DNA of 64,000 bases from positions 7,014 through 71,013 of the forward strand of contig JAUYSY010000088.1 in assembly GCA_030696155.1 (NCBI GenBank). The letters are read 5' to 3'. The stretch is from Alphaproteobacteria bacterium. Its GTDB lineage: Bacteria > Pseudomonadota > Alphaproteobacteria > JAUXUR01. The notes below the pieces were generated by a model, which saw only the letters and a program-made list of their open reading frames with translations, did no database searches and was not told where the DNA came from. The position numbers and the translations under genes were made by a program. Below, in pieces: positions 2,097 to 43,122 of the stretch. Position 1 is the stretch's first letter. Every line of letters starts with the position of its first letter.

Positions 2097-3419
2097 TTAT
2101 TCAATTTCAATTTTTTTAATTATTATATTTTTTGGATAGTCAACACATAATTTTATTAATACATTATGCTCCCAATTATTTGTTATAATAATTGTTCGTT
2201 CTTTTCCATTAATACCAAAAAGTTTATTTTTTTTAATTGGTATTTTCTTTTTTTCTAGTCCAATTTTTTCTAAAAATAAATCAAAAATACTTCTATTAGA
2301 ATTATTTTTTGGCATAAAATTTATTTTAATACCTCCAATTCCACCAACAACTAGTTTAATTTTTTTTGCATTTTCAATTTCTATTGTTTCATCAGCGAAT
2401 ACAACACCATCCAAAGTAGAATTGTTCCATAAATCTTCAGATCTGCTATGTATTTTAACAAATGGTTTTTGGTAATCAATATTTTTTGAAAATTCTAATC
2501 TATCTGATATTTTTGTACTTAAAATTTTCAAATCTAAATCTAAATTATTTTCTTTTTTTGAAGTAAACATTAACCTAAACGGTTCTTCTGTTTTTATAAA
2601 TGAATCTTTTATTTCATTAATGCCTTTTTTAATATAAAAGGTATTTAATTTACTGGATGAAATAATTTCACCTAATTCATTGTAGCTTAAATAATAAGAG
2701 AATAATTTGTAATCACTATTAGAATATACTTTAGTTGAATATGTATAATTATATTTACCTTTTTGTTTTAATTGGTAATTTTCGTAACTATTTGGAGAAT
2801 AATAATAATCCTCATTTTCATTGCTTAATGAAAATGATTTTTTAGAATAATCCATTTGATTTAAAATTTCTTCAAATATTTTTTTTATTGATGGTTTAAT
2901 TTTTTTTATTTTGATGTTGTCGACAAGCTGTTCATTAAAATTTTTATTTAATTTTATAATTTTCCAACCCGCTTGATTGAAAACAACTTGAGACAAATGC
3001 GGATCGTTCAACAAATCGTATAATTTTGTAGAATACAAAGTAGGGTCATTATAATCATTAATCAAAAAATAAATAAAATCGTTTTCTATAAATTTATTGA
3101 ACAAATCTTCTGTGCTTTTATTTGATTTATTTAATATTTCGTATATTTGTTGACTATATAAATGAAACGGTGTTGGTTTCATGTATATAAGCTCTGCTTG
3201 TCTCATTGCTACTACTTTATTTTTACCAATAATAGAATTAACAGCTTTAATTACAAAAGATAAAGAATTATTTCCATGTAAGATTTTATGAAAATCCGAA
3301 TTATAAAAGGCATACGATTTTATATTTTTATAAAAATGTATAATGGGTATACTTGATAAAAGTACCACAAAAAAACAAAAAACAATGTATTTAAGTTTTT
3401 CTAAAACGAATGATGCCAT
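2097..3419 (-). CDS. Single-pass membrane protein with large extracytoplasmic domain; conserved partner of the GT-C-like gene (paralog of 19497..20777)
   Basis: One N-terminal TM helix. NDYNDPTLYSTKLYDLLND and AGWKIIKLNK motifs are shared with 19497..20777 and with the C-terminal domain of 29002..31029. The start overlaps the upstream GT-C gene by 29 nt. Confidence 0.6.
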   Translation of the reverse strand: MASFVLEKLKYIVFCFFVVLLSSIPIIHFYKNIKSYAFYNSDFHKILHGNNSLSFVIKAVNSIIGKNKVVAMRQAELIYMKPTPFHLYSQQIYEILNKSNKSTEDLFNKFIENDFIYFLINDYNDPTLYSTKLYDLLNDPHLSQVVFNQAGWKIIKLNKNFNEQLVDNIKIKKIKPSIKKIFEEILNQMDYSKKSFSLSNENEDYYYSPNSYENYQLKQKGKYNYTYSTKVYSNSDYKLFSYYLSYNELGEIISSSKLNTFYIKKGINEIKDSFIKTEEPFRLMFTSKKENNLDLDLKILSTKISDRLEFSKNIDYQKPFVKIHSRSEDLWNNSTLDGVVFADETIEIENAKKIKLVVGGIGGIKINFMPKNNSNRSIFDLFLEKIGLEKKKIPIKKNKLFGINGKERTIIITNNWEHNVLIKLCVDYPKNIIIKKIEIE

Positions 3420-4830
3420 ATCTAGAAAATACCTTTTCAGTAAATAATGATCCTATTAAAGCCATATGCAAAATAGGCTGTAGCATGTATCTATGGTTAT
3501 GTAAGAAGATATCTATACCTATAAAAGAGGCAAAAAGAACACCGAGATAAAACATAAAAACTATTAAAATTGAAAAATCTAAAAAAGTATTAATTTTAAA
3601 AATAGTATTAATTTTTCTTTTAATATAAATGATACATGCAGGAATGGTAATAAGATAGAAAAATCCAAAATTTCTATATTCAAAAAACATTTTTCCAAAT
3701 CCATAAAAGAATTTTTCAGAGAAAGAAGACACATCTCTATCTAGTTTTCTAAAATGAGTAAAAGCTTCTTTGTTTTCTTTTGCAATATCCATTGTATAAA
3801 GATCACCGAATATAGATCCTAATACGTCATATATTTTTATAAAATCAAGAATAACAACAGATAAACATACTAAAAAAGAAACACAAATATAAGTTATTGT
3901 TTTTATTAATTTTTTTCTATTTTTTATAAATACTATTGTAAATAAAATAAACAATGTTAGAATCCCAGAGCTGTGGACAAACCATGATAAACCTATTGAT
4001 AAACCCAATAATATGTAATTTGAATAATTATCTCTTTTGATGGTTAAGTAGGCAAATAAAGAGGCTGAAAAAAATGTTAAACACCTTATAGGGTCAATAT
4101 GAAAACCAAAAGACATCAAAAAGAAAAATGGAAAACTTAATACAAGAAATGTTGCAATAAAAGGATTTTTTATATGTTTCTGATAGGTTGATATTTTTAT
4201 TAAGATAAATGAAATAATAATAGGAACCATTATTACAAAAAATTTAGAATTTAAATTTTGAATATCAACATCAAGTAAGACTGCACCAAATGCCAGGTAT
4301 GAAGGAAAACCAAGGGGATGTGTAAGGGGTAGAACAAAACCTTTTATAGCATCTTTAGAAGGATAATCATATATAAAGCTTTTGCCTAAGATCAATCTTG
4401 AAATATGAAAATACTCTATTGAATCGTTTTCGATAACTGGAAAAAAAACACAAGATAAAATTAAAAATAAAAGCAAAACAACAACAAAAAACAAAACAAA
4501 AATATTTTTCAAATTATATTTTAAAGGTAAAGTATAATTATTAACAATAAACAATTTTAATTTTTTTAAATAAAATAAAGAATAAAAAAAGAATGGAAGT
4601 GTCGTTATAGAAAACAATGTATAAAAAGATTGTTCATTAAGAATTCTAGTGAATAACAAAAAAACAAAAGAAACAAAAGGGATTCCAATACCTAAACATG
4701 CACAGAACAAAAATCTTTTTTCTATTTTTGTTGCATCATAAGGAATACATATATTATAAAATGTAAATGGTATAAATATTGTTATAGCTAATATTTTTGA
4801 TATTTGAATTAGTATATCAATAAAATTCAT
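3391..4830 (-). CDS. Polytopic membrane protein, GT-C fold glycosyltransferase-like (ArnT/PMT/Gtr-type); paralog of 18097..19539 and 29002..31029
   Basis: More than 10 predicted TM segments. The first loop carries an acidic ENDSIEY motif followed by a conserved HPLGFPSYLAFG block. The same arrangement recurs in two paralogs (GNDPLQY...HPLGYPGLLAWG and ENDALEY...HPLGYPSLLVFQ). Confidence 0.55.
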   Translation of the reverse strand: MNFIDILIQISKILAITIFIPFTFYNICIPYDATKIEKRFLFCACLGIGIPFVSFVFLLFTRILNEQSFYTLFSITTLPFFFYSLFYLKKLKLFIVNNYTLPLKYNLKNIFVLFFVVVLLLFLILSCVFFPVIENDSIEYFHISRLILGKSFIYDYPSKDAIKGFVLPLTHPLGFPSYLAFGAVLLDVDIQNLNSKFFVIMVPIIISFILIKISTYQKHIKNPFIATFLVLSFPFFFLMSFGFHIDPIRCLTFFSASLFAYLTIKRDNYSNYILLGLSIGLSWFVHSSGILTLFILFTIVFIKNRKKLIKTITYICVSFLVCLSVVILDFIKIYDVLGSIFGDLYTMDIAKENKEAFTHFRKLDRDVSSFSEKFFYGFGKMFFEYRNFGFFYLITIPACIIYIKRKINTIFKINTFLDFSILIVFMFYLGVLFASFIGIDIFLHNHRYMLQPILHMALIGSLFTEKVFSRYGIIRFRKT

Positions 4831-5001: not shown

Positions 5002-5532
5002 CTAGATTATTGTTTTTTTCATTATTATTTTTTTTCCACTAGAAAAAAAAATAATTTCGTTAAATAATAGTTTATTATATAAAAATCTAGCATTATTAGC
5101 ACTGTTAACAATTAAAAAAACATTCTTCTTTTTTGTTTTTTTTAAAACATCTTCAAGTGCATAACTTAAAAGCTCTTTTCCTAGCCCCTTATTTTGATAT
5201 TCTTGTACTATACTCGTTGAATAAAGCCATAATTTTGTAGATAATCTAAACGTTGCATATCCTATAATTTTATTATCAACATACAATATATATGTTAGAT
5301 CAGGTGTTTTTAAAAGATAATTTTTTAATTCTGAATCAAGAGAATCTTTGAAATTATTTCTATAAATTTTTAAAATTTGCTCTATATCATCATATGATTT
5401 TACATAATCAATTCTTTTTTTATTTTCTGTGCATATTTTTAAATTTTTAATTTTATTTTTTTTAAAATTATTCATAAAATTATGTAAAATAATTTCAGAA
5501 TAACTTATAAATAAAAATAAAATTTTAAACAT
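5002..5532 (-). CDS. GNAT-family N-acetyltransferase
   Basis: Acetyl-CoA binding-like motif QNKGLGKELLSYALE at the expected position in a 176-aa protein. Confidence 0.7.
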   Translation of the reverse strand: MFKILFLFISYSEIILHNFMNNFKKNKIKNLKICTENKKRIDYVKSYDDIEQILKIYRNNFKDSLDSELKNYLLKTPDLTYILYVDNKIIGYATFRLSTKLWLYSTSIVQEYQNKGLGKELLSYALEDVLKKTKKKNVFLIVNSANNARFLYNKLLFNEIIFFSSGKKIIMKKTII

Positions 5533-6569
5533 TATACACCTTCCTTTAGTAAGGAAGGTCCAATCATTTCATTAACCCATTCAGGTGATTTACGTATAAC
5601 AAAAGAAACTATTTTTCCTAAAGAGCCATCTCTTTTTATACTTTTTTGTTTTTTACAATGTATAACGCTTGTTGGAATGTCATATATATTTTGTGTAAAT
5701 TGTTTTTTGAAGTTTATTAAACCTGTATGAAATTTTGGTGCTGAACCTAAATCAAAAACTGAATGCTGTTGATTAAAAGAATATTTAATGGCTTCCCAAA
5801 GCAATAAATTCATTGGTCTCTGTAAAATGGCTTCAGGATTATCAAATGACCCGCCATAGGAATATAACGCTTTATTGTTATGATAAAAAATCATTATAGA
5901 TGCGCATAATCTATTATTATGAAATGCATTAAATATTAAAGTTTCTTTATTCAATTCACTATGAATTTCAGAAAATAATTTTTTTGGATATAAAGGTGAT
6001 CCTTGTCTTGTGCGTGTTTGTCTAATTATTTTGTAAAAATTTTCATAATCTTCGACCGAATTACCAATTTTAATTTCGATATTCTTGATTGCTTTTTTAA
6101 TATTTCTTTTATTAGTATCAGCAAGAGATTTAAAATATTCATCCGATGATTTAAAATCTTTGATAGAGACGACAGATATACAATTTTCGTTAGAAATTGT
6201 AACGTTTTCAGAAAAATCTTTAATATTATCTCTAAATTCAATATAATTGTATTTATTTGATAATGTTGAAAGTAAATTATTAATAGACTCTTTTTTTATA
6301 AAATCATTTTTACTTATTATTGGAACAGAGTGTGAAAATGGAATCGAAATTAATCTTTTTCCTTTTAATAATCCATTAACCTCAAACAAATTAAAAACAC
6401 ATGAAAATTCATCATTTTCTTCAGATAAAAAATACAAGGGTTTAAAATTATAAGTATTTTTTGTTACATTCATCCATCCAAGCGTATGATATATTTCTGA
6501 AATTTCAGATTCATATATAAATTTATTATATTTTTCTATATTTTTAGGATTTAAACTTAATAAATTCAT
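5532..6569 (-). CDS. FemAB/CelD-like (Acetyltransf_6-type) acyl/aminoacyl transferase; start reassigned to internal Met (TAATG coupling with upstream gene)
   Basis: Segment KRNIKKAIKNIEIKIG...FYKIIRQTRTRQGSP and overall size resemble FemAB-family / CelD-like GNAT-fold proteins. The ORF-track start at 6665 would overlap the upstream gene by 97 nt, whereas Met at 6567..6569 abuts its stop. Confidence 0.45.
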   Translation of the reverse strand: MNLLSLNPKNIEKYNKFIYESEISEIYHTLGWMNVTKNTYNFKPLYFLSEENDEFSCVFNLFEVNGLLKGKRLISIPFSHSVPIISKNDFIKKESINNLLSTLSNKYNYIEFRDNIKDFSENVTISNENCISVVSIKDFKSSDEYFKSLADTNKRNIKKAIKNIEIKIGNSVEDYENFYKIIRQTRTRQGSPLYPKKLFSEIHSELNKETLIFNAFHNNRLCASIMIFYHNNKALYSYGGSFDNPEAILQRPMNLLLWEAIKYSFNQQHSVFDLGSAPKFHTGLINFKKQFTQNIYDIPTSVIHCKKQKSIKRDGSLGKIVSFVIRKSPEWVNEMIGPSLLKEGV

Positions 6570-7375
6570 TATTTTTTCCGCATATATTTTATTGTATTCT
6601 TTAAAGCCACAGATGCAATATCCATTGAAAAAGATAATATATGTGAAGAAAAAGAATGAGACCATCTTTCTGGATGAGTTTGGATGATAATGTTATTAAA
6701 TTCTACATTATTTTTATTTTTGTAAATAAAGTCGATAAGACTGGACGTGCTTTTTAAGTTTGATAAGTCTAATCCATTTTTTTGAACATTATCTCTTAAG
6801 TTCGATTTTGTATTTCCCCAACTACGTGATGTATCTGTAAAATATTGAACTTTTTTATAATCAATCGAAATATAAGGTTCAGCAATAATTCCATTGTTTG
6901 TAAAGTCAAATTTTTTCCACAAATCTCTATTATCATATTTTGATAATGGACTACCGTGCATACATATTGTTTTTATACCTACTATTTTTCTAAAATTTTC
7001 AAGTTCACTTTTAAACAAATCATATGCTTTGGAGTAATCTCCTTTTGACTTTGAAAGTGTTTCGTAATGATACCCAATTTCATGCCCCAGAAGTTCAATT
7101 TTTTTAATAAGTTTTTCATTAAAAACGATAGGAATATGCCTAAAATAATAGGTTGATTTAATAGAAAATTCATTTTCTAATTCAGCCATTTTAAATGCAT
7201 TATAAGGAATTCTATCAACATCATGACGCATAATGATGCATTTCTCATTTTTTAATTCATTATAATTTTCATAAAATGATTTAAAATCAAAAAATTTATA
7301 CCCCATTTTTTGAAGGGAAAGGAAAAGGACTTTGTATTGATCAAGTGTAAAATCTTTAATATAATTTTGGGGCAT
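6569..7375 (-). CDS. Putative polysaccharide deacetylase-like (CE4-like) protein
   Basis: MRHDVDR motif near the N-terminus and downstream GHEIGYHYE His-containing block resemble divergent NodB-homology deacetylases. Weak. Confidence 0.35.
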   Translation of the reverse strand: MPQNYIKDFTLDQYKVLFLSLQKMGYKFFDFKSFYENYNELKNEKCIIMRHDVDRIPYNAFKMAELENEFSIKSTYYFRHIPIVFNEKLIKKIELLGHEIGYHYETLSKSKGDYSKAYDLFKSELENFRKIVGIKTICMHGSPLSKYDNRDLWKKFDFTNNGIIAEPYISIDYKKVQYFTDTSRSWGNTKSNLRDNVQKNGLDLSNLKSTSSLIDFIYKNKNNVEFNNIIIQTHPERWSHSFSSHILSFSMDIASVALKNTIKYMRKK

Positions 7376-9176
7376 TTTTTATAATTTCTATTGCATGATT
7401 TAAATCAAAGCCAACAACGCCTGCATATTCTTTCATAGACTCAAACCTTGGTTTGTTATCAATATTAATTTTGTCCATAGCCTCTTCTCTTGTAATAAGA
7501 CCTTGACGAATCTGTGAGCTTCTAAAGGTATCGTTTTCACTAAAACCAGCCATCTCCATATAAATATAATTGTAAAAAGCAGCAGTTCCGTCGCCTATTC
7601 GCCAAGTAGTATCAGAAGATTTTTCTGTTTCCCAATTATAATTATTTTTTAAAACATCAATAAGATGTTTTTCATCCCAATCTATATAATCGTAAATGGA
7701 ATGTATATTATGTTTTAATATATACGCACAATAAAAAGCAAATGCAGTATCGTATAAAGAAGAATTAAAATATCTCACATTTTTTAAATATTCTAAAAAG
7801 AAATATTGAACCATTTTAATTTTTTGAAGCTTAGGAACATATGTATACCAGCCATTTGATTCTTTTACACCACAAAATCCTGATTTAAATCCACTTTGCT
7901 CCATCTTATTTCCAGCAAAAAAGACTAAATCTATATTTAGATTTTTTGAAATAACTTGTGGATGGTAAAAATATTCTTTATCACCTGCCATTAATAATGT
8001 AACCATTCCTAATGATGGTCTCTTAAGCCAGGCTAATAAATTCTTTTGAACATATTTTCTTTTTTTTGGAATATCTGCTGAAACAAGTATATTTTCAACA
8101 CCAAGCTGACCGCACATTCTTGCAATATTACGTCTAGCAAGATCTGTAACCATGCCCCAGTCATAAGTATAAGTAACGGGATTCATACCGAGCTCTACTT
8201 TTAAGACATGAAGGGCGTAAGAGCTATCACGGCCACCACTAAAAGCAAGTATACAATCAGGCGATCCATCATTTTTCTTATGTTTATCACATAAAGCCCT
8301 TAAAGCATCAATACCTAACGGTTTGTAAGGAATATAGGTATTGCAAATAGAACAAACACCATGCGCATCAAATTTAATTCCTGGAAAAGTTTCAGGAAGT
8401 ACGCATTTAGAGCACCTTTTAAGATTTATTTTTTTTATGTTATTTTTGTTTATATCTATTAATTGGTATTCTTCTTTTTTTAATTCTATTTTTTTAATAT
8501 CGCCTTTTTTTAGTTGATGTACATTTATATCGTTAAAATATTTTTTAGAAATATTTTTGATAAATGTTTGCTGAGAAGCAAAAACAACCGCATTATTTTT
8601 ATCTTCTAAATAGTATAAAGATCCAGTATTTGTGCTAAGTGTTAAAATGTTTTCTTTTTTAAAAAGGCACGCTAAGGATGCATCTCCCTCAATTATTGAG
8701 TAGAAATCATTTAAAGCACTCTCAATTGATGTTTCTTTAATTTTTTTATCTAAAAATTCTGGAATTACGGCGGTGTCAAGTTCTGATTTTGGAGATTGAT
8801 TTAAATGATCTTTCCAAATTTTTTCATAATTGCAAATTATACCATTATGAATTACTACTATATCTTTTTCTAAAACGGGTTGATTATTAAAAACATTAGA
8901 ACGATCGCCATTCGTGCAAAGCCTTGAATGTCCTAAAATCAATAAATCTCCGTTTTTTATATTAACTTCATCTAGAAGGTTTATTAACTCCTTCTCTTTC
9001 ATTAGCTCTAAAACAGATCCCTTGTGTCTTAAGATTTTAATTTTTCCTTGATGGCGTATTGCTATACCACTTGCTTCTTTCCCACGAGAGTTGGAAAGTT
9101 TAGCCAGATCAAATAGTAACTTTTTCCACTGTCCATCAAACTCTTTATCTATATAAAACCCAAATACGCCACACAC
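7356..9176 (-). CDS. Fusion amidotransferase: class-II (Ntn, Cys2) glutaminase domain + zinc ribbon + PP-loop ATP pyrophosphatase of the WbuX/PseA N-acetyl-sugar amidotransferase type
   Basis: Starts MCGVFGFY (Cys2 nucleophile). Then CSKCVLPETFPGIKFDAHGVCSICN (CxxC..CxxC). Then AFSGGRDSSYALHVLK (SGGxDS PP-loop). Paralog of 20777..22612. Confidence 0.6.
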   Translation of the reverse strand: MCGVFGFYIDKEFDGQWKKLLFDLAKLSNSRGKEASGIAIRHQGKIKILRHKGSVLELMKEKELINLLDEVNIKNGDLLILGHSRLCTNGDRSNVFNNQPVLEKDIVVIHNGIICNYEKIWKDHLNQSPKSELDTAVIPEFLDKKIKETSIESALNDFYSIIEGDASLACLFKKENILTLSTNTGSLYYLEDKNNAVVFASQQTFIKNISKKYFNDINVHQLKKGDIKKIELKKEEYQLIDINKNNIKKINLKRCSKCVLPETFPGIKFDAHGVCSICNTYIPYKPLGIDALRALCDKHKKNDGSPDCILAFSGGRDSSYALHVLKVELGMNPVTYTYDWGMVTDLARRNIARMCGQLGVENILVSADIPKKRKYVQKNLLAWLKRPSLGMVTLLMAGDKEYFYHPQVISKNLNIDLVFFAGNKMEQSGFKSGFCGVKESNGWYTYVPKLQKIKMVQYFFLEYLKNVRYFNSSLYDTAFAFYCAYILKHNIHSIYDYIDWDEKHLIDVLKNNYNWETEKSSDTTWRIGDGTAAFYNYIYMEMAGFSENDTFRSSQIRQGLITREEAMDKINIDNKPRFESMKEYAGVVGFDLNHAIEIIKNAPKLY

Positions 9177-11579: not shown

Positions 11580-12413
11580 CTAAATAGAACCATCAAGTGA
11601 TTCATCAATTTCGTCGATTAATTTATTTAAATTATCCTTAATCACAATTTTCTGTTGCAATGTAAGCTTTGAAAGAGATTTTTTTTGAATTTTCAATTCA
11701 TTTTCATTAAAAGCAAGCCTAAGAACTGAAAACGTTTTTTTTATCTTTTTAAAAGAAGCGTTCCCACTCATCCCTTTTATAAAATCAGCTTGCTCATCTT
11801 GTGAAGAAATATTGAAAAGTTTTCTTAGATTTTCGCGGCCGCGAAAATCTGTTTCCAAAATTAAATTCTGCACATCTGGATGAAGTGTGTTTAATTTAAT
11901 CAATTCTGAAATTTGAGAATTAGAAAGACCAACTTTAGACTTAAGTTCTGTCTGCCCTCCCCACCCAACTCTATCTATTAACGATTTTAAAGCACGCGCA
12001 ATTTCCATTGGATGCAAATCCTGACGTTGGACATTCTCAATAAGAGCAATTTCTTCCGCTTTGGCAAGATCCTCAACAATTATACATGGAATTTTTAACA
12101 ACCCAACAAGTTTTGCTGCTCTTAATCTACGCTCACCACTAATTACCTCAAAAACCAATTCATCACTTGAGCTTCTTAGTACAGTTAATGGTTGCCTAAT
12201 ACCATGCTCTTTTATAGTAACGGCAAGTTGTTCGATCTCCTCTTCGGAAAACAATTTTCTTGTTTGTTTATTATATGGCTTTAATTGATCAATAGAAAGA
12301 TACGCAACTTCATATCGTTTATCATCACTAAAAACACTTACTCTTTTTGAAACCGATGTATTTGAATTAAATTCATTGGATGTTATTCTAATTTTTGCAT
12401 TATCTATTTTCAT
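11580..12413 (-). CDS. parB: ParB/Spo0J-family partition protein
   Basis: ParB box ISGERRLRAAKLVG. Position immediately downstream of a ParA gene. Confidence 0.8.
   Translation of the reverse strand: MKIDNAKIRITSNEFNSNTSVSKRVSVFSDDKRYEVAYLSIDQLKPYNKQTRKLFSEEEIEQLAVTIKEHGIRQPLTVLRSSSDELVFEVISGERRLRAAKLVGLLKIPCIIVEDLAKAEEIALIENVQRQDLHPMEIARALKSLIDRVGWGGQTELKSKVGLSNSQISELIKLNTLHPDVQNLILETDFRGRENLRKLFNISSQDEQADFIKGMSGNASFKKIKKTFSVLRLAFNENELKIQKKSLSKLTLQQKIVIKDNLNKLIDEIDESLDGSI
11829..11848. promoter_or_regulatory. Candidate parS centromere site: 20-bp perfect GC-cored palindrome ATTTTCGCGGCCGCGAAAAT (inside parB)
   Basis: Perfect palindrome read directly. GC-rich core in an AT-rich background. 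A near-identical copy lies in the parA-parB intergenic region. Confidence 0.45.
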
Positions 12414-12445: not shown

Positions 12446-13426
12446 TTAAGCAGCCACTTTAACATTACTATTTTTAGAACTTTGCTGTACAAGCTCATGA
12501 ACTAAATCCATTACATCTTCAAAAGCAGCAGACCTTGATTTGCAGAAAGCAGAAATTGGAAGTCTCATTTTTGCAGCAATGTTTATATCTTCTGATTTTC
12601 TCACGACAGATCCCATAACATGGTTTCCATAATTCACCCTAAGAGCACCCAACACCTCTTGAGCGATGGCCGTCTTAATCTCATACTTATTAGGTATAAT
12701 ACAATAATTGGGATTTAACCCCATGTCATGATAAAAATTATTCATCTCATTAATAAAAACACCCAAACCATTAAGACTGAACGGCTGTGTTTCACATACA
12801 ATATTAAGCCTATCACAAGCAACAAGAGCATTAAGATTAAGCGTACTAATTGTAGGGTTACAATCCATAATGATAAAATCATAATCTTCACACAGTGGAT
12901 CTAAAATGAGTTTTAGCTTTTCTTCTCTCTTATTTTTAGAACTTAACGGAACCTCGATCCTTGTCACCGATATATTTGAAGGAATAAGATCTAATCCAGG
13001 CATAACTTTTACAATAGCATCATCAACAGAAACACCATTTATCATAATATCATATATTGTTGGACCACTCCAATCTTCTGGAACATTCATTACATTTGAT
13101 AAATGTCCCTGAGGATCTAAATCAATGCATAAAACTTTAAAACCCAAAAGAGATAAATGCGTAGCAACCTGATAACACATACTTGTTTTACCAGTACCAC
13201 CTTTAAAATTATAAAAAACATGTATTTTTTGAAAGATTGGTCTTTTGTGACTGGCATAAACCAAATCTGTAATTTCACGCGTAACTGAAAATGGATAACG
13301 CTTTGTATAATTATTATCATTATGAATTGGCTGAATATTTTGAGACACAATTAACCTTGACACAATAAGTGGTGTCGCTTGGCAAAGCTGTGCAATCATA
13401 GCTTGATTATAGGTGATGTTTTCCAT
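12446..13426 (-). CDS. parA: ParA/MinD-family partition ATPase (with N-terminal extension)
   Basis: Deviant Walker A FKGGTGKTS, followed by CIDLDPQG. 326 aa with ~70-aa N-terminal extension typical of type Ia ParA. Confidence 0.9.
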   Translation of the reverse strand: MENITYNQAMIAQLCQATPLIVSRLIVSQNIQPIHNDNNYTKRYPFSVTREITDLVYASHKRPIFQKIHVFYNFKGGTGKTSMCYQVATHLSLLGFKVLCIDLDPQGHLSNVMNVPEDWSGPTIYDIMINGVSVDDAIVKVMPGLDLIPSNISVTRIEVPLSSKNKREEKLKLILDPLCEDYDFIIMDCNPTISTLNLNALVACDRLNIVCETQPFSLNGLGVFINEMNNFYHDMGLNPNYCIIPNKYEIKTAIAQEVLGALRVNYGNHVMGSVVRKSEDINIAAKMRLPISAFCKSRSAAFEDVMDLVHELVQQSSKNSNVKVAA

Positions 13427-13839: not shown

Positions 13840-14943
13840 ATGATAAAATCTAAAGTTTTATTACAAGAAGATAAGTGTCTTGTTATGCAGCCGGAACTTA
13901 TTAAAATTGCGGGCAAATCAGCAGCATTATTATTACAACAAATTCATTATTGGATTAGTAATGAAAATGTTCAGGGTAAAATTCATAACAAAATGAAGTG
14001 GATTGCAAATTCCTACGAAGCATGGACTTCTGACATTAAAATAATATCAAGAAGCACTATTGGAAGATCAATAAATACATTAAAAAACTTAGGCATTCTA
14101 TTTGTTGAAAAATTGTCTGATTTTAAAAACAATAGAACAAATTGGTATACAATCAATTATAATCGTATTACTGAAATATTATCTATCCCTAGTATTGATC
14201 ATTCCGTACAAACTTCTTCGCATTTAAACGCTATCCCTGATCAAAATGTTATAGATGAACAATTCAAAATGAGCCCATGTTCAATTCAAAATGAGCCGAT
14301 GTATATAGATAAGAAAACAAACAAAGATATCTTAATAAATCTTAATAAATCAATAAATAATTCTTTTTCTGTAATTAAAAAAGAAAAAATAAAAAAGCCG
14401 TTGACAAAACAAATGATTGATATTTGGAATGAAATAATTAATCCGGATGTAAATTATGAACTTACTAAAAATAGATGTAAGTTTCTTGTTGCAGCTCTTA
14501 AATATAAGTTTAATTATGACATAACACAATGGAAAAATTATTGTTTTAAAATAAGTAGCAGTGATTATTTAATGGGAAAAATTAAAAATGGATTTAAAAT
14601 TTCTTTGGATACTATTTTAAAATTTGATTTTATTCAAAAAATTTTTGAAAAACAATTTGGTGTTAAAGATTTAAAAACTTCTTTTGAAACCGAAGAAAAC
14701 ATTCATCAAAAAATTGATGATACTAAATTACCATACGAAATAAAAGAAATACATCATAAAATTTGTGAAAAAATAGGTACTGCAAAATATATTTCTTGGT
14801 TTAAAGATACGAAAATATTTAAATTATCAAATTCAATAGATATTTTTGTTGATAATAATTTTAAAAAACAATGGATAGGAACAAACTATCAACGTGATCT
14901 TGAGAATTTATTTGGCATAAAAATTAAGATTATTATTAATTAA
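13840..14943 (+). CDS. Putative replication initiator / wHTH DNA-binding protein (divergent from parAB)
   Basis: N-terminal winged-helix-like segment (ISRSTIGRSINTLKNLGILFVEKL), as in DnaD/RepA-type initiators. The position opposite parAB across a 413-bp AT-rich spacer supports the call. The functional assignment is inference. Confidence 0.35.
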   Translation: MIKSKVLLQEDKCLVMQPELIKIAGKSAALLLQQIHYWISNENVQGKIHNKMKWIANSYEAWTSDIKIISRSTIGRSINTLKNLGILFVEKLSDFKNNRTNWYTINYNRITEILSIPSIDHSVQTSSHLNAIPDQNVIDEQFKMSPCSIQNEPMYIDKKTNKDILINLNKSINNSFSVIKKEKIKKPLTKQMIDIWNEIINPDVNYELTKNRCKFLVAALKYKFNYDITQWKNYCFKISSSDYLMGKIKNGFKISLDTILKFDFIQKIFEKQFGVKDLKTSFETEENIHQKIDDTKLPYEIKEIHHKICEKIGTAKYISWFKDTKIFKLSNSIDIFVDNNFKKQWIGTNYQRDLENLFGIKIKIIIN

Positions 14944-15075: not shown

Positions 15076-16239
15076 ATGAAAATTTTATTAACCGCAGGCA
15101 TTAATATAAATCAAAACAACGCATGTTCAATTAATTTTTTAAGAACAGCAAATTCTTTTTCTTATCTATCAAATGATGAAATCATTATTTTTACTGCTGA
15201 AAAAAATTCAAAATTATTTTCAATATTAAAAAAAAATAATATTATTAAAAAAAGTGGTTATTTTAATAAAAAACTTCCAAATTCAATAAATTTTCTTATT
15301 AATATTCCTAAAATTTTAAATATTGTTAGAAAAGAACATATTGATATTGTTTATATACGTTATAATCTTATGAGCTTTTTTCTAGTATTTTTTATAAGAT
15401 TTTTTTCAAATACTTTTATCGTAACAGAACATCACGGATGGGTTGAAGATGAATTAAAATCGAACAAAAAAAGTAAACTTGTTTCATTTTTATTTAAAAA
15501 ACTTCAAATATTAGATGTTAAAATGGCTCACTTAGCACGTGTAGTCGTGGATGGTATAAAAGAAAAATTTGTTAATAATGGAATAAGACAAGAAAAAATA
15601 GTTGTTTTTCAAAATGGTACCGATATTGCTTCTTTTGAAGATAAAAAGAATTTTAAAAAAATAAAATCAGATTATTATAAAATAGGATTTATAGGAAATT
15701 TAGCTGCGTGGCAAGGTGTACATATTGCGTTAATGGCAATGCCTATCATTCTTAAACATAGAAAAGATATAAAATTAATAATTATTGGAGATGGCCCTGA
15801 AAAGAAAAATCTTGAGCAGCTGTCTCATTCTTTAAATTTAAAAAACAATGTTGATTTTTGCGGGGAAGTTTCTTTTCAAGATGTTCCTTTAGTGTTGTCT
15901 GATTTTGATATTGCTATTGCACCTTTTACCTCTGAAAGAAATAAAAAAATTGGATTAAGTCCTATTAAAATTAGGGATTATGCAGCATCAGGGCTTGCAA
16001 TCATCTCTTCTGATATTAAAGGGATTTCTGATTATGATTGGCTTATTAAAGTGCAGCCAGATGATCCGGAAGCCTTGGCAAAAAATATTTTACATTTGGT
16101 TGAAAATGAACCCCTTAGAAAGAGTCTTCAAGAAAAATCAAAAAATTACGCTTTTGAGCATTTTGATGTAAAAATAATAGGTGCAGCCATTATGGCTGAA
16201 ATTACAAAAATAAAAAACAAACAATTAAGTGGCAAATAA
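15076..16239 (+). CDS. Glycosyltransferase family 1 (GT-B, GT4-like)
   Basis: C-terminal GT1 signature region IGFIGNLAAWQGV...IIIGDGPEKKNLEQL...FCGEVSFQDVPLVLSDFDIAIAPF. Confidence 0.85.
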   Translation: MKILLTAGININQNNACSINFLRTANSFSYLSNDEIIIFTAEKNSKLFSILKKNNIIKKSGYFNKKLPNSINFLINIPKILNIVRKEHIDIVYIRYNLMSFFLVFFIRFFSNTFIVTEHHGWVEDELKSNKKSKLVSFLFKKLQILDVKMAHLARVVVDGIKEKFVNNGIRQEKIVVFQNGTDIASFEDKKNFKKIKSDYYKIGFIGNLAAWQGVHIALMAMPIILKHRKDIKLIIIGDGPEKKNLEQLSHSLNLKNNVDFCGEVSFQDVPLVLSDFDIAIAPFTSERNKKIGLSPIKIRDYAASGLAIISSDIKGISDYDWLIKVQPDDPEALAKNILHLVENEPLRKSLQEKSKNYAFEHFDVKIIGAAIMAEITKIKNKQLSGK

Positions 16240-16245
16240 TATAAA

Positions 16246-18096
16246 ATGTGTGGTATTTGGTTTTCATTTTCACGAGAAATATCATCAAATGTAATTGATA
16301 TCATTAAACACCGTGGTCCAGATGATGCAGACTTTTTAAAGTTCGAATCTTCATTCGGCCCAATTTTTATGGGGCATAGACGTCTTTCAATTGTTGATGC
16401 GTCTTCTGCGGGTCATCAACCTATGGAAGATACAATTCATTCGTTGTGGATTACGTATAATGGAGAGATTTACAATTATAAAGATTTACGCCAAGAACTT
16501 GAAGGATTTGGACATCAGTTTAAAACTAATACAGACACAGAGGTTATTTTAAAATCTTATGTTCAATGGGGCGAAACATGTCTTCATAAATTTTCTGGGA
16601 TGTTTTCTTTTGTAATTTATGATAAAAAATCAGACCATATTTTTGTGGCAAGAGATCCATTTGGCATAAAGCCACTATATTATTATCAAAAAGGAAATTT
16701 TTTAGCTTTTGCATCGGAGATAAAACAATTTACGTGTTTAGAAGATTTTGAACGGCGTATTCACAAAAAACGTGCTTATGATTTTTTAAAAAATGGTATT
16801 TTTGATCATCGCGACGACACTCTTTTTGATGAAGTGAAGCAAATAAGGGGCGGGGAGTGTGCGTTTATTTCTTTAAAGGATTTTAAAAAGACACACTCTT
16901 TTAAGAAAAAAAAATGGTATGTGTTACCACATCCTGATTCAATTCAAATAACACTCAAAGACGCAATTGATCAATTTAGAGAAAAATTCAAAAAATCAGT
17001 TCAAGAACATCTTATGTCTGAGGTGCCTATTGGTTTTTGTCTTTCGGGTGGGTTGGATAGTTCGTCAATTGTAGGTATGGCCGATTATTTAAAAAATACA
17101 AAAGAACTTGTTACGATTAGTGCATGTTATAATGATAAATTTTTTGATGAAAGAGAATTTATTAAAGCTGTTGTTGATAAAACAAATTGTACTTCTCATT
17201 TTATTTTTCCAAAAGAAGAAGATCTTTTGGCTGATATCAAAAAAATAACATGGCATCAAGATGAACCATTTGGAAGCATGAGTATTTTTGCTCAATGGTC
17301 TGTTTTTAAAGAGGCGCATCAACATGGTTTAAAAGTAATGCTGGACGGGCAAGGTGCTGATGAACAACTTGCAGGTTATCTGTTTATGATGCCGCATTAT
17401 ATGAAGTGGCTTTTAGCGCGTCATCAATATATTGATTTTGCAAGTTTTGCTCTTAATTTTTCAATGAGCGAGCCTGTTTTTGTTTTAAGGTCACTAAAAA
17501 GATTATTTAACAAAAAAAATAAATCAAAAGAATTAATAATTAATAATAATTATTTTTTAGAAAATGAAGAAAATTATTCAACAGAAAAAAATGCATTAGA
17601 CTATTTAGATCTATCAACTTCTTCTGATATTGGTAATTTATGTTCTGCTTACGTTCAGTCTCTTCATTTACCAATGTTATTGCATTATGAAGATAGAAAT
17701 TCCATGGCACATTCGATAGAAGCACGTGTTCCATTTTTGGATCCAAAACTTGTTGAGCTTTCTATTGCTCTTGGTAATTCATATAAATATAAAAATGGGT
17801 ATACAAAAGTACTTATAAGAGAAGCAATGAAGGATATTTTACCATCTAAAATTTATAAAAGAAAAAGCAAATTAGGGTTCTCTGTTCCTGAAACAAAGTG
17901 GATTAGGGGTACCTTAAAGAATTTTATAAAAAATTCAATTGGTAAAGCATGTAATAAATTTCCAGAATTTTTTGACAAAAGTTCATTAATGGATTATTTA
18001 GGAGAGAGCTTAAATGGATCACACCATTTTGATTTCACTTTATGGCGTATAGCGAGTTTTGGAGAATGGTCTGATATGTTTGATGTTAAATTATAA
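16246..18096 (+). CDS. asnB: Asparagine synthetase B-like glutamine-dependent amidotransferase (WbpS-like, as found in polysaccharide loci)
   Basis: MCGIW N-terminal Cys2, HRRLSIVD, and PP-loop SGGLDSS. 616 aa. Confidence 0.9.
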   Translation: MCGIWFSFSREISSNVIDIIKHRGPDDADFLKFESSFGPIFMGHRRLSIVDASSAGHQPMEDTIHSLWITYNGEIYNYKDLRQELEGFGHQFKTNTDTEVILKSYVQWGETCLHKFSGMFSFVIYDKKSDHIFVARDPFGIKPLYYYQKGNFLAFASEIKQFTCLEDFERRIHKKRAYDFLKNGIFDHRDDTLFDEVKQIRGGECAFISLKDFKKTHSFKKKKWYVLPHPDSIQITLKDAIDQFREKFKKSVQEHLMSEVPIGFCLSGGLDSSSIVGMADYLKNTKELVTISACYNDKFFDEREFIKAVVDKTNCTSHFIFPKEEDLLADIKKITWHQDEPFGSMSIFAQWSVFKEAHQHGLKVMLDGQGADEQLAGYLFMMPHYMKWLLARHQYIDFASFALNFSMSEPVFVLRSLKRLFNKKNKSKELIINNNYFLENEENYSTEKNALDYLDLSTSSDIGNLCSAYVQSLHLPMLLHYEDRNSMAHSIEARVPFLDPKLVELSIALGNSYKYKNGYTKVLIREAMKDILPSKIYKRKSKLGFSVPETKWIRGTLKNFIKNSIGKACNKFPEFFDKSSLMDYLGESLNGSHHFDFTLWRIASFGEWSDMFDVKL

Positions 18097-19539
18097 ATGA
18101 CATATATATATTTAATAATAAAAATTTTAAATATATTTTTTATAGCTCCAGCAAGTATATATGCTTTTTTATGCTCTACTCAAATTAAAATTAGATATAA
18201 TATTATATATTCTTATGTTTTTGCTTTTGGTTTAATTCCATGGTTTTATATATTATTATTAAGAGTATTTCCATACCAACATTCTGGATTTTATATATTA
18301 TTAACCATTATTCCTTTTGTCTCTTTGTTGGTTTTGAAAGCTAAATTCTTTAGGTTTTTTTTGAATGAATTTTGTATGCTAAAATCAATTGCAAAAAAAA
18401 TAAATAAATTTTCTTTTTTTTGTTTTCTTTTTATGATTTTTTTCATTATGTTATGGTTTTTAAAAAAACCATTGCTTGGAAATGATCCATTGCAATATTT
18501 TTATCTTTCAAATCTTATAGATAATTTAAAGGAAATTTCTTTCTATCCATCAACGACTGCTGTTGATGAAAGAGGGTTTGTTGTACCATGGTCTCATCCT
18601 TTGGGATATCCAGGTCTTCTTGCCTGGGGTAGGCTTGGATTATCGAAAGATATTGGTCTTTTCTTTGCAAAGATATGTTCATTTTCAATGACATTTTTTC
18701 TTGCTTTAGCGCTTATTATTGTTCTTTATAAAGAAACAACTCGTTTTAATTTTTGGGCCTCTTTGTTGTTACTAACAACACCTTTATGTTTAAGTGGTGC
18801 ACTTGAATGCCATATTGATTCAAGTCGTATGCTTCTTTTTTTTGCTTCTTTTTTGCTTGTCTATGAATATCTTAAAAATGTTTCAGAAAAAATTATTTTT
18901 CAGAAAGATGTCATTTATTTTTTAATTTTAGGTACTTCATTTGGCTTTTCTTGGTTTTATCATTCATCTGGCATATTAACATATGTTATATGTATGGGGG
19001 TGTTTTCAATCATTTTTCTTTTAAATCAAAGGAAAGAAATGTCGTTTTATGTAATGCTAAAAAAGTATATTCCTTTGATTTTTTTGACGACTTTGACAAT
19101 GGTTTTAATTGTTTGTGTTGATTTATATAATTCGTTTAAGGTTCATGGAAAAATTTTAGCAGATTTAGAAAATATAAAAATAATTAATTTTATGTCAGAT
19201 GAATACAAAATGTATTTTGATTTAAGTAGAGGTATAAAGACTTTATGTGATAAATTTGTATTTGGTATTTTTAAAATATTTACAGAAATAAGTATATTTG
19301 GTATTGTTTATTTTTTATTTATTATTTCTTTGTTTTTGTCTATAAAAATGATAAAAACTAATAATATTTTAACTATATATAATTTTTCAATATTTTTTGT
19401 TTTTATCTTTTATTTGTTTGTTGTTTTTGCAACAATTGCTGGCGTTGGTACATTTGCATTTAATCCAAGGTATTTACTTCAAATTCATCCTATTGTTTGT
19501 CTCGTCGTAGCGCTTCAGATGAAAAGGATATGGAGATGA
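18097..19539 (+). CDS. Polytopic membrane GT-C fold glycosyltransferase-like protein (paralog of 3391..4830)
   Basis: GNDPLQY loop motif and WSHPLGYPGLLAWG block. Multi-TM. Start abuts the asnB stop (TAAATG). Confidence 0.55.
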   Translation: MTYIYLIIKILNIFFIAPASIYAFLCSTQIKIRYNIIYSYVFAFGLIPWFYILLLRVFPYQHSGFYILLTIIPFVSLLVLKAKFFRFFLNEFCMLKSIAKKINKFSFFCFLFMIFFIMLWFLKKPLLGNDPLQYFYLSNLIDNLKEISFYPSTTAVDERGFVVPWSHPLGYPGLLAWGRLGLSKDIGLFFAKICSFSMTFFLALALIIVLYKETTRFNFWASLLLLTTPLCLSGALECHIDSSRMLLFFASFLLVYEYLKNVSEKIIFQKDVIYFLILGTSFGFSWFYHSSGILTYVICMGVFSIIFLLNQRKEMSFYVMLKKYIPLIFLTTLTMVLIVCVDLYNSFKVHGKILADLENIKIINFMSDEYKMYFDLSRGIKTLCDKFVFGIFKIFTEISIFGIVYFLFIISLFLSIKMIKTNNILTIYNFSIFFVFIFYLFVVFATIAGVGTFAFNPRYLLQIHPIVCLVVALQMKRIWR

Positions 19540-20777
19540 TACGTTTTTTAAAAAAATCATTAATTTTTATATTAATTTTTTATGGTATTTTTTATTATAT
19601 ATTGCAAATTGATTATTTTTCATTTAACGATTTAAGGTTAAATGATTTTAATAAAAAAGATCAAAATTATTTTTTAAAATTATTTTCTTTTTTAGAAGAA
19701 CGTAATTATAAAAAAGCTTTTGTATTACGAGATGGTGAGTTTTTAACATATTCTAATTTAAATATACAGCATATTTTTGATGATAAAACAATTGATTTTA
19801 CGAATGATATAAATAAAATATATGATTTTGATTGTATTATTAGTAATCATTATAATGATCCAATATTTTATAAAACAAAATTAAATGATATTATAAATCA
19901 ATATGATAAAAGTTCATTGGTATTTGATGATCTTGGGTATAAGGTTTTTGAATTAAATAAAACCAATAATACAATTAATTCAGAAGGTTTTAAATTTGAT
20001 GTATCTGAAATAGATTTTTTGAAAAATAGTTATTTTTATTTAACACATAAAAATGAATATCCATCATTGTTGGCTAAGCCAGATATAAAATATGATGAAT
20101 TTCCCATTTTAGAAGATGGATTTTATGATTGTATATGTGATATGGAAATAATAGCTAATGAAGATTCTATTGTTTTGTTTTCAATTTTAAATTACGAATC
20201 TTACAGAAATAATTATATTCTTAAGGATACTTTATATTTAAAAAAAGGAAAAAATAATATTTCAACACGGTTTTTAACTACGAGCAAACCCTTTAGATGT
20301 TTATTTTCGTCTAAAAAACATCCTATTTCTATTGAAAATTTTAAAATAAATTTTTATAAAAAAGAAAATAAATTTTATGATTTAAATCAAATTTATCCAA
20401 AAACATATTCTATGTTGTTTGATGGTGGTAATATTAAATCAAATACACTTATTTTTTTTCAAAATAAAGATAAAAATTTTAAGTTAATCAATATGGATTT
20501 AGTTGGAGATGGTGAAGTTTTTTTATCAACGTTGAACTTAAATGGTATAAATAAATTTTTATTAAAAAATTCTTTTAATAATTTTTTAATAAAAATTTTA
20601 TTATTTTTTAATGGAGATAGTTCTGTTTTATCTATTGGCCAAAAATCAAAAATAATAGAAAAAAATATACCTCCGAACTCGATTCTTTTTTTACAATTTA
20701 AAAAGAATCATATGAACGAAAATGCAAATTTTGTTATACAAAATATCAAAATTATAAATGGAAGCGAGAACGATTAA
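19497..20777 (+). CDS. Single-pass membrane partner protein of the GT-C gene (paralog of 2097..3419)
   Basis: N-terminal TM. NHYNDPIFYKTKLNDIINQ and LGYKVFELNK motifs. Overlaps the upstream GT-C gene by 43 nt. Confidence 0.6.
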   Translation: MSRRSASDEKDMEMIRFLKKSLIFILIFYGIFYYILQIDYFSFNDLRLNDFNKKDQNYFLKLFSFLEERNYKKAFVLRDGEFLTYSNLNIQHIFDDKTIDFTNDINKIYDFDCIISNHYNDPIFYKTKLNDIINQYDKSSLVFDDLGYKVFELNKTNNTINSEGFKFDVSEIDFLKNSYFYLTHKNEYPSLLAKPDIKYDEFPILEDGFYDCICDMEIIANEDSIVLFSILNYESYRNNYILKDTLYLKKGKNNISTRFLTTSKPFRCLFSSKKHPISIENFKINFYKKENKFYDLNQIYPKTYSMLFDGGNIKSNTLIFFQNKDKNFKLINMDLVGDGEVFLSTLNLNGINKFLLKNSFNNFLIKILLFFNGDSSVLSIGQKSKIIEKNIPPNSILFLQFKKNHMNENANFVIQNIKIINGSEND

Positions 20778-22622: not shown

Positions 22623-23570
22623 ATGTACAAAAACAAAAAAATAGCGGTTGTTGTTCCTTCTTTTAACGAAGAAACACAAATATCAAAAGTTATTACGACG
22701 ATGCCTGATTATGTTGATCATATTATTATTATTGATGATAAAAGCACAGATAATATGGCGGCTGTTGTTGAAGAGCATTGTAAAACAAACCCTAAAATTG
22801 TGCTAATTCGTCATGAAATTAATCAAGGTGTTGGCGGGTCAATTGCAACAGGTTATAAATGGGCACGTGATCATGAATGTGATGCAACGGCTGTTATGGC
22901 TGGTGATGGTCAGATGGATCCAAATGATTTAGCAGAGCTTTTAGACCCGGTTGTATCTGGCGAGGTTGATTATTCTAAGGCAAATCGTTTAATTTATGCA
23001 AAAGCTTACGAAATTGTGCCCAAGGTTCGTTTTTGGGGAAATGCTATTTTATCATTACTTACAAAAATAGCATCTGGCTATTGGCATATATCTGATTCAC
23101 AAACAGGTTATACAGTTATTAATCTTAAAGCGCTTCAAATAATCGACTGGGATTTAATGTATAAACGTTATGGCCAACCAAATGATTTGCTAGTAAGGTT
23201 AAATATTCATAATTTTAAAGTGCGCGATATTCCTCAAAAACCTGTTTATAACGTTGGGGAACAATCAAAACTTAAAATTAGAAAAGCCATTTTTACAATA
23301 AGTATTTTATTACTGAAAAAGTTTTTCTGGAGATTAAAAGAAAAATACATTATAAGAGATTTTCATCCTCTTGTTTTTTTCTATTTTTTCGGATTTTTTT
23401 CACTAGGCTGTTCTTTTTTGTTTTCAATTCGATTTTTCAGATTATGGTTTGTTAATGGAGAGGTGCCAGAGGTCACATTGATTTTGTTATTATTCATGCT
23501 TGCTGGCGGTGTTCAAGCCATTTTTTTAGCCATGTGGATGGATCAAGATTATAATAAGGAATTAAGGTGA
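22623..23570 (+). CDS. GT2 polyprenyl-phosphate sugar synthase (GtrB/ArnC/DPM1-like) with C-terminal TM helices
   Basis: IAVVVPSFNEE...IIIIDDKSTD N-terminal GT-A signature. 315 aa with 2-3 C-terminal hydrophobic helices, as in GtrB/ArnC. Confidence 0.85.
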   Translation: MYKNKKIAVVVPSFNEETQISKVITTMPDYVDHIIIIDDKSTDNMAAVVEEHCKTNPKIVLIRHEINQGVGGSIATGYKWARDHECDATAVMAGDGQMDPNDLAELLDPVVSGEVDYSKANRLIYAKAYEIVPKVRFWGNAILSLLTKIASGYWHISDSQTGYTVINLKALQIIDWDLMYKRYGQPNDLLVRLNIHNFKVRDIPQKPVYNVGEQSKLKIRKAIFTISILLLKKFFWRLKEKYIIRDFHPLVFFYFFGFFSLGCSFLFSIRFFRLWFVNGEVPEVTLILLLFMLAGGVQAIFLAMWMDQDYNKELR

Positions 23571-42911: not shown

Positions 42912-43122
42912 CTTCCCAGAAAAGGAACAGAAGCTGAATTAAAAACAGGTGCGACAACGCATCGTGGAAAGCATTATCAACCATATAAGAAGGAAGTTAA
43001 TGAAGCTTTGGATAAAATAAGGGATGAAGGTCTTGCTAAGGGATGGACACAGTCCCAATTTAAAGAAAAGCTTCATCATTTTATGGATGATTTTGGTGAG
43101 CAATTATTAAAAGGTAATAAAC

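Follow-up and report, generated by a model that had tools for sequence, protein, structure and literature searches.

Two predicted fused amidotransferase genes in the window

The window, that is the whole 64,000-nt stretch of contig JAUYSY010000088.1 (assembly GCA_030696155.1, Alphaproteobacteria bacterium) that was analysed, carries two genes whose predicted products join a class II glutaminase domain of the N-terminal nucleophile (Ntn) type to a zinc-ribbon PP-loop domain resembling the N-acetyl-sugar amidotransferases (NASATs). The two open reading frames (ORFs), referred to here as copy 1 and copy 2, had been picked out in an earlier note made from the sequence alone. Both were recovered at the positions listed in Table 1, and Pfam, NCBIfam and motif positions bore out their MCG(V/I)FGFY N-termini, Ntn glutaminase domain, CxxC..GxCxxC ribbon and SGGRDSS motif; what the note had not given is that copy 1 lies on the minus strand and starts with GTG. 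The copies are paralogs, 66% identical end to end, and the fused proteins are predicted to be soluble, with no hydrophobic or transmembrane segment in them.

The GTG of copy 1 is the earliest possible start after the upstream stop, and the Cys codon follows it directly. The ATG of copy 2, likewise the earliest possible start, overlaps the preceding stop as TAATG, again with Cys directly after Met. The same MCG was present at the N-terminus of nearly all homologs, the exceptions being upstream starts picked mechanically in ORF calling. The start region of copy 1 (9168-9180, minus strand) reads aATGTGTGTGGC, with the in-frame GTG at 9176 and, two bases before it, an ATG that is out of frame (9178). 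The sequence here is a (TG)4 run, and one TG unit fewer would give a canonical ATG-TGT-GGC start. Proneness to slippage, a detail of the assembly or a plain GTG start could each account for it.

Table 1. Positions of the fused genes, their domains and the neighbouring glycan genes in the window, and of subfamily members in related loci
Feature	Position	Strand	Details
Fused amidotransferase, copy 1	7356..9176	-	606 aa, MCGVFGFY; GenBank MDP3533129.1, 'hypothetical protein'
Copy 1 glutaminase domain, class II (Ntn)	8532..9176	-	aa 1-215; GATase_7, GlmS profile alignment, Foldseek
Copy 1 NASAT-like synthetase domain	7359..8426	-	aa 251-606; TIGR03573, 8wex
Copy 1 zinc ribbon	8343-8414	-	C255..C278
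Copy 1 PP-loop	8223-8240	-	S313-S318
Fused amidotransferase, copy 2	20777..22612	+	611 aa, MCGIFGFY; MDP3533139.1, 'glucosamine 6-phosphate synthetase'
Copy 2 glutaminase domain	20777-21421	+	
Copy 2 zinc ribbon	21542-21613	+	
Copy 2 PP-loop	21716-21733	+	
CE4/NodB-like putative sugar N-deacetylase	6569..7375	-	268 aa; overlaps the end of copy 1 by 20 nt
FemAB-like transferase	5532..6665	-	downstream in copy 1 operon
GNAT acetyltransferase	5002..5532	-	downstream in copy 1 operon
GT-C-like paralog	3391..4830	-	copy 1 operon; cluster 5; PF13231 PMT_2 E 7.5e-5, below gathering score
GT4 glycosyltransferase	15076..16239	+	first gene of copy 2 operon; order shared with Ca. Puniceispirillum L001
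AsnB-type amidotransferase (genuine)	16246..18096	+	copy 2 operon; GATase_7 + Asn_synthase; PF00733 251 bits, TIGR01536 438 bits
GT-C-like polytopic membrane protein	18097..19539	+	upstream of copy 2; cluster 5, PMT_2-like, by clustering
GtrB/ArnC/DPMS-type polyprenyl-phosphate glycosyltransferase	22623..23570	+	PF00535; 10 nt downstream of copy 2
Wzx-like flippase (Polysacc_synt)	25381..26607	+	Pfam; cluster present in 31 of 68 loci
GT-C-like paralog	29002..31029	+	
603-605 aa subfamily members	L082:8783-10600; L085:9001-10812; L086:2710-4521; L088:8851-10665		

The glutaminase domain

A scan of one genome per GTDB species returned at least 564 stretches encoding relatives of the fused family, and conservation was scored in alignments of 23 and 93 full-length fused homologs, 44-66% identical to copy 1. 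Residues ~79-206 matched the Pfam models GATase_7 (42.5 bits in copy 1, gathering score 25) and GATase_6 (28.2 bits, gathering score 27), and the NCBIfam GlmS and PurF models matched just the first ~210-250 residues. An AlphaFold2 model of copy 1 built with the 93 homologs had a mean predicted local distance difference test score (pLDDT) of 92.8 and a predicted TM-score (pTM) of 0.69. Foldseek aligned it to the isolated glutaminase domain of GlmS (1xff) with a TMt of 0.75 and a root-mean-square deviation of 3.4 A.

In class II amidotransferases of the GlmS type, Cys1, Arg73, Asn98-Gly99 and Asp123 provide the nucleophile, the glutamine-binding residues and the oxyanion hole. The family profile aligned C2, R85, N111-G112 and D134 of the fused proteins to these residues of E. 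coli GlmS (1xff/4amv). Among the 93 homologs, C2, G3, R85, G112 and D134 were invariant and N111 was present in at least 90%. The glutaminase catalytic set, as predicted from this alignment, is intact in the fused family. At the position of the GlmS channel residue Trp74 the family profile alignment has Leu.

The synthetase domain and its relation to NASATs

The NCBIfam model TIGR03573 (WbuX, NASAT) matched residues 253-581 of copy 1 (E 8e-41) and 254-588 of copy 2 (E 1e-38). The scores of 140.7 and 133.3 bits, respectively, fall under the curated cut-off of 203.2 bits. The domain composition expected in the earlier note, GATase_6/7 followed by TIGR03573, was thus recovered as matches to both models, but not at the strength that NCBIfam sets for membership. 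Seven further fused homologs gave 134-151 bits, compared to 257-325 bits for the canonical, unfused NASATs of related loci.

The NASAT family has been defined by a PP-loop SGGXDS and a zinc-binding motif CXXCXn[GN]XCXXC, and its structure is represented by 8WEX from Legionella (PMC10607449). In the fused proteins the PP-loop SGGRDS lies at residues 313-318 (copy 1) and 314-319 (copy 2), and S313-G-G-x-D-S318 was invariant in the 93 homologs. The tetracysteine motif, a predicted zinc site, occurs in both copies (CSKCVLPETFPGIKFDAHGVCSIC and CTKCILPQTFPGIAFDEKGICNIC), reading C255-x2-C258...G273-x-C275-x2-C278 in copy 1 and spanning C256...C279 in copy 2; its four Cys residues and G273 were likewise invariant. 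The best sequence match in the PDB was 8wex, with E-values of 4e-14 for the single sequence and 5.7e-21 for the family profile (chain residues 78-390), followed by GlmS glutaminase domains (1e-15). For the C-terminal half of the model, 8wex was also the first-ranked Foldseek match (E 8e-15, TMt 0.57).

When the fused synthetase domains were compared with a sample of canonical NASATs, their mean identity was 57% among themselves and 22% (maximum 27%) to the canonical proteins. About two dozen positions, including the zinc and PP-loop residues, were common to both, and many others were specific to one class. Since this identity of ~22% goes with scores below the TIGR03573 cut-off, the fused group is classed, on sequence grounds, as a discrete sister family of the canonical NASATs and not as a member by the NCBI criterion. 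At such a distance, the substrate need not be the same.

Two proteins of related loci, a fused homolog from Kapabacteria (L036:10001-11944) and an unfused NASAT (L050:7600-8919), kept the PP-loop, but a simple scan for motifs picked up no CxxC pair in them. Some members may do without the zinc ribbon, or these ORFs may have been delimited wrongly.

Other enzyme identities did not hold. For GlmS, the models covered residues 1-248 alone with 61-76 bits against cut-offs of 381-418 (TIGR01135 matched residues 2-243 with 69 bits against 418), and there is no SIS domain. QueC (TIGR00364) gave 14 bits against 150. The note had allowed that profile searches might assign the whole protein to AsnB; TIGR01536 gave 26-30 bits against 267, PF00733 did not match, and full-length superposition on AsnB gave a TM-score of 0.26-0.31, while the AsnB-type protein encoded in the same window reached 438 bits with TIGR01536. 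The database names 'glucosamine 6-phosphate synthetase', 'asparagine synthetase B' and '7-cyano-7-deazaguanine synthase' carried by relatives do reflect an N-terminal domain that looks like the glutaminase domain of GlmS. Set against these scores and superpositions, and against the missing SIS and PF00733 domains, they are almost certainly wrong.

HisH/HisF partners

Canonical NASATs had been said in the note to draw their ammonia from separate HisH/HisF-like partners, and this agrees with published work. HisH2/HisF2 have been proposed to deliver ammonia to WbpG, with a WbpG-HisF2 interaction observed by co-immunoprecipitation (PMC11445079), and a set of WbuX, HisF2 and HisH is needed for a Sphingomonas polysaccharide (PMC11340318). 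In the 64-kb window, no match to PF00117 or PF00977 was found among ORFs of at least 120 aa, and no phmmer match to E. coli HisH or HisF among ORFs of at least 80 aa, so that the reported lack of wbuY/wbuZ homologs in the locus held.

Neighbourhoods were compared in the best 80 of the at least 564 loci, 68 of which had a cleanly called fused gene (69 fused genes), after clustering of ORFs across all related loci. A HisH-HisF pair was present within 10 kb in five of the 80 and absent in 75. All five pairs directly precede a separate, unfused NASAT-like gene, with the fused gene elsewhere in the locus; these unfused genes encode 376-384 aa in four loci and, in L050, 439 aa as called, without a CxxC pair. 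Three further loci with an unfused NASAT, two of which encode the same protein, showed the same GATase and His_biosynth neighbours, and one of the three also carries a 605-aa fused gene. HisH/HisF were therefore beside each of the eight unfused NASATs examined, and pairs were seen solely there. Such a pattern would be expected if the fused Ntn domain had taken over the supply of ammonia from HisH/HisF.

Distribution and annotation of the family

The earlier note had called the fusion unusual. The architecture is real, but it is not rare: it belongs to a large family spread over many phyla. The best 80 loci came from Alpha-, Gamma- and Betaproteobacteria, Myxococcota, Planctomycetota, Verrucomicrobiota, Bacteroidota, Chloroflexota, Patescibacteria, Nitrospinota, Omnitrophota and Bacillota, with one Woesearchaeota metagenome-assembled genome (MAG). 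Legionella londiniensis ATCC 49505 and Pseudomonas abietaniphila ATCC 700689, the latter with the fused protein WP_074752914.1, are among the carriers in culture. The 120 best database homologs had ~100% query coverage and lengths of 600-700 aa, and were named 'hypothetical', 'GlmS' or 'AsnB'; members encoded on plasmids of cultured bacteria go under the names '7-cyano-7-deazaguanine synthase', 'glucosamine 6-phosphate synthetase' or 'hypothetical protein'. No NCBIfam or Pfam model names the fused family, and annotation pipelines overlook it because its TIGR03573 scores of 134-151 bits fall under the cut-off. No description of a class II glutaminase-NASAT fusion was found in the open-access literature, the part searchable here. 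The N-terminal domain alone gave 611 clusters at 50% identity (E <= 1e-10), and many of these matches were 200-500 aa long, which would suit glutaminases standing alone as well as proteins truncated at contig ends.

Trichlorobacter, Pusillimonas, Agrobacterium plasmids and Bacteroidales carry another, highly conserved fused subfamily, of 603-605 aa and with about 40% identity to the proteins of the window. Its members from Bacteroidales, Trichlorobacter, Pusillimonas and a Burkholderiales MAG are 72-91% identical, which suggests horizontal spread in recent time. The subfamily sits in Wzx/Wzy-type clusters with PglC/PglD/DegT-like or WbpA/B/D/E-like genes.

The 133-kb plasmid pDCAR1 of Solidesulfovibrio carbinolicus DSM 3852 (L087 6612-15821) carries, in order, an epimerase, a family 2 glycosyltransferase (GT2), a fused gene annotated as QueC with the product WP_129355994.1, asnB, a glycosyltransferase and a second asnB. 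This cultured carrier would be a convenient experimental system.

Genomic neighbourhood

In the copy 2 operon the order is GT4, AsnB, GT-C-like protein, an ORF of no assigned function, the fused gene, GT2, another such ORF and flippase. The operon is syntenic with that of Ca. Puniceispirillum L001, whose fused protein is 70% identical. The copy 1 operon, in which the fused gene is followed by the CE4-like deacetylase, the FemAB-like transferase, the GNAT and the GT-C-like protein, is similar to locus L002.

The commonest neighbour of the fused gene was a single GT2 cluster, present in 44 of the 68 loci and spanning at least seven phyla. It lies at most three genes off for 33 of the 69 fused genes and is directly adjacent to 20. 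The cluster profile matched over its full length to GtrB (5ekp, 1.5e-40), archaeal DPMS (5mlz, 8e-34) and ArnC (9bhc, 8e-31), and its members bear C-terminal hydrophobic, putatively transmembrane, helices. Because of these full-length matches and helices, the GT2 cluster is assigned by sequence as a polyprenyl-phosphate sugar synthase.

A Wzx-like flippase recurred as a neighbour in 31 of the 68 loci, and in 27 it occurred together with the GT2. GT-C-like membrane proteins with weak PMT_2 or DUF6056 matches were present in 13 and four loci, respectively; the assignment is based on sub-threshold PMT_2 matches (3391..4830 and the cluster member in L013), and the cluster profile gave no match when compared with PDB sequences. 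GT2, flippase and GT-C occurred together in 12 loci, the window included. The 268-aa CE4-like protein, with invariant HDVD and HExGxH motifs, stands beside the fused gene in nine loci and gave weak profile matches (E 1e-4) to PgdA (2c1g) and other CE4 deacetylases.

Inside the glycan cluster of the window, an MBOAT acyltransferase (27566..28963, minus strand) is followed by a protein with a weak DUF1574 match (26604..27557, minus strand). The two look like an AlgI/AlgJ-like pair for glycan O-acylation.

Proposed function and alternatives

In the mechanism proposed here, loss of the initiator Met would expose the Cys2 thiol for the hydrolysis of glutamine, and the ammonia would pass from the Cys2 site to the PP-loop site within one polypeptide, presumably by channelling. 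There the zinc-ribbon ATP pyrophosphatase domain of the NASAT type (WbuX/WbpG/PseA) would use ATP to adenylate the carbonyl oxygen of the sugar substrate, and ammonia would displace AMP. The likeliest reaction would be the conversion of an acetamido to an acetamidino group on a HexNAc-type sugar, the fused glutaminase standing in for HisH/HisF-like ammonia delivery. As the neighbouring genes suggest, the modified sugar would be placed on a lipid carrier and flipped, and would then be transferred to an envelope glycan outside the cytoplasm. The modification could precede the GT2 step, on the nucleotide sugar, or follow it on the lipid-linked sugar in the manner of ArnD.

Both genes probably encode bifunctional, glutamine-hydrolysing NASAT-type sugar amidotransferases that supply their own ammonia. 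The self-contained, glutamine-dependent enzyme proposed in the note gains support from the conservation of the glutaminase residues in the 93 homologs, the lack of HisH/HisF and the fused NASAT domain; as far as the sequences can tell, a glutamine-dependent, ATP-driven mechanism is well supported. For the acetamido-to-acetamidino conversion itself, which the note had suitably put as a possibility, the case is about evenly balanced, and becomes probable if the architecture model is correct. An acetamidino product is favoured because the NASATs are the closest family and because the conserved module includes no gene for a special precursor.

Several points weigh against this reading. The identity of ~22% to canonical NASATs and the sub-cut-off TIGR03573 scores leave room for a different substrate and a different chemistry, and reconstitution has yet to be achieved even for canonical NASATs (PMC10607449). 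With a pTM of 0.69, the relative orientation of the two domains in the model is uncertain. In several loci a fused gene coexists with a canonical NASAT and its HisH/HisF; the two systems are not simple functional equivalents, and their substrates probably differ. The 603-605 aa subfamily has no GtrB-like GT2 neighbour. Finally, copy 1 adjoins the CE4-like deacetylase and the FemAB-like transferase, possibly indicating an aminoacylated sugar with an amidated carboxylate.

This last point leads to an alternative with the same architecture and the same use of glutamine and ATP, in which a carboxylate would be amidated instead, turning a uronic acid into a uronamide or modifying the free carboxyl of an amino acid that an amino sugar carries. 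Adenylation of carboxylates is common among PP-loop enzymes, as in NAD synthetase, AsnB and QueC, and the synthetase domain is just a distant sister of the canonical NASATs. The deacetylase, FemAB-like transferase and GNAT genes after copy 1, the ATP-grasp ligases of nine related loci and the WbpA/B/D/E-like genes for diacetamido uronic acids beside some members of the 603-605 aa subfamily (603-aa proteins) point the same way. Yet AsnB-type amidotransferases, the usual formers of uronamides, are already present in the same operons, and NASATs give the nearest match by profile as well as by structure. A UDP-sugar 6-dehydrogenase is encoded in only nine of the 68 loci, which fits a HexNAc-like substrate made without a uronic-acid pathway and speaks against a uronamide. 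Carboxylate amidation is rated unlikely, though it is the leading alternative.

Two further explanations depart from the proposed model. The glutaminase domain might be vestigial or regulatory, the enzyme using free ammonia or an unlinked partner; the linker at residues 241-250 of copy 1 is variable across homologs and modelled with low confidence (pLDDT 63). This is very improbable given Ntn catalytic residues that are invariant or at least 90% conserved in 93 sequences as diverged as 44-66% identity to copy 1, an N-terminal Cys kept right after the start codon, and the absence of HisH/HisF beside fused genes. Alternatively the substrate might be no sugar at all but a lipid head group, a peptide or a nucleotide, the glycan loci being incidental. 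The substrate pocket is not readable from sequence and the family is divergent, but the polysaccharide-cluster setting is consistent in about 70 loci of many phyla and the polyprenyl-phosphate GT2 is often adjacent, so that a non-sugar substrate is seen as scarcely more credible than an idle glutaminase.

Returning to the sugar amidotransferase reading, the fused enzyme, the GtrB/ArnC-like GT2, the Wzx-like flippase and the GT-C-like protein might together form an unrecognised cross-phylum pathway, from Alphaproteobacteria to Patescibacteria. It would place a lipid-linked acetamidino, permanently cationic, sugar onto envelope glycans, in parallel to the Ara4N, GlcN and GalN charge modifications. 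This extension is offered tentatively, the odds being clearly against it.

Comparison with known systems

Canonical NASATs (WbuX, WbpG, LfnA, PseA, LpNASAT/8WEX) and the fused family share the fold, the zinc ribbon, the SGGXDS PP-loop and the occurrence in polysaccharide loci, and presumably also the ATP-to-AMP activation chemistry (PMC10607449). They differ in the glutaminase, which in canonical NASATs is a class I HisH encoded separately and paired with a HisF cyclase-like subunit (WbuY/WbuZ, HisH2/HisF2) and in the fused family is a built-in class II Ntn domain. Their typical neighbours differ too, namely HisH/HisF and the GtrB/ArnC-like GT2, respectively.

The AsnB family, including the WbpS type of O-antigen loci, likewise has an N-terminal Ntn glutaminase with Cys1 followed by an adenylating PP-loop domain, and both families occur in glycan clusters, as in this window. 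The AsnB synthetase domain is PF00733, however, and that of the fused family is zinc-ribbon and NASAT-like, as the full-length TM-scores reflect. The glutaminase domain of GlmS is the nearest relative of the fused N-terminal domain, all of its catalytic residues being matched, but GlmS has a SIS isomerase domain and Trp74 where the fused family has no SIS domain and Leu. PP-loop synthetases that recruit different types of glutaminase are a familiar theme, seen in AsnB, GMP synthetase and NAD synthetase, so the fusion is not wholly new in kind. The frequent link to a GtrB/ArnC-type GT2 is the less expected part of the finding.

That link recalls the Gtr (GtrA/GtrB/GtrC), Arn (ArnC/ArnD/ArnE-F/ArnT) and Bordetella Lgm systems, since a full-length GtrB/ArnC/DPMS homolog stands beside the fused gene; for the Arn and Lgm lipid-carrier pathways, established knowledge is followed here. 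The CE4-like deacetylase of nine loci, including that of copy 1, recalls ArnD and LgmC. In Gtr and Arn the flippase is GtrA or ArnE/F, whereas in fused-gene loci it is Wzx-like, and the GT-C there is assigned from weak PMT_2 matches. To our knowledge, no Gtr, Arn or Lgm system includes an amidotransferase.

If the proposed function is correct, hundreds of bacterial species would make amidino or amide sugars by one self-sufficient enzyme now mislabelled as GlmS, AsnB, QueC or 'hypothetical'. A family model of its own would put these annotations right and give glycobiology a marker of cationic sugar decorations, which influence phage, complement and antimicrobial-peptide interactions. Reconstitution would be simpler with one polypeptide than with the three proteins of the WbuX/HisH/HisF system, whose chemistry was never shown in vitro, and could therefore settle the NASAT mechanism. 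The pairing with a GtrB/ArnC-like GT2 points to an unexplored route of lipid-carrier decoration.

The fused family might also explain acetamidino sugars in organisms without pseA/wbuX homologs. Tannerella forsythia makes Pse5Am7Gra without pseA/ptmG homologs (PMC5378307), and its 605-aa 'AsnB', Tanf_01265, has been proposed to form Pse5Am (PMC6120980, PMC5378307). As a tentative lead, Tanf_01265 may belong to the fused family; the top 120 matches of a search seeded with a Bacteroidales fused protein included no Tannerella protein.

Other features of the window

Between the two glycan sub-clusters lie genes for ParB (11580..12413), ParA (12446..13426) and a protein of 367 aa whose C-terminal part is a DnaA_N domain (13840..14943). 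A resolvase, fragments of Tn3 and PDDEXK transposases and toxin-antitoxin genes are found in the right half of the window. Across the glycan cluster the GC content is 21-32%, against 28-41% to the right of it. The contig could represent a plasmid or mobile island.

In a 747-aa ORF (50389-52632, plus strand), a YoeB-like toxin domain is confined to the extreme C-terminus (aa 687-745) and the remainder matches no Pfam model; so large a carrier of this domain is unusual. At 38685-44025 (plus strand), the gene for a 1408-aa protein with filamentous-haemagglutinin repeats precedes one for a member of the Imm11 immunity family, which suggests a contact-dependent toxin/immunity pair. Just past a serine resolvase (34108..34677), the region 34984-37378 (minus strand) encodes an AbiEii toxin and an AbiEi antitoxin beside a calcineurin-like phosphoesterase.

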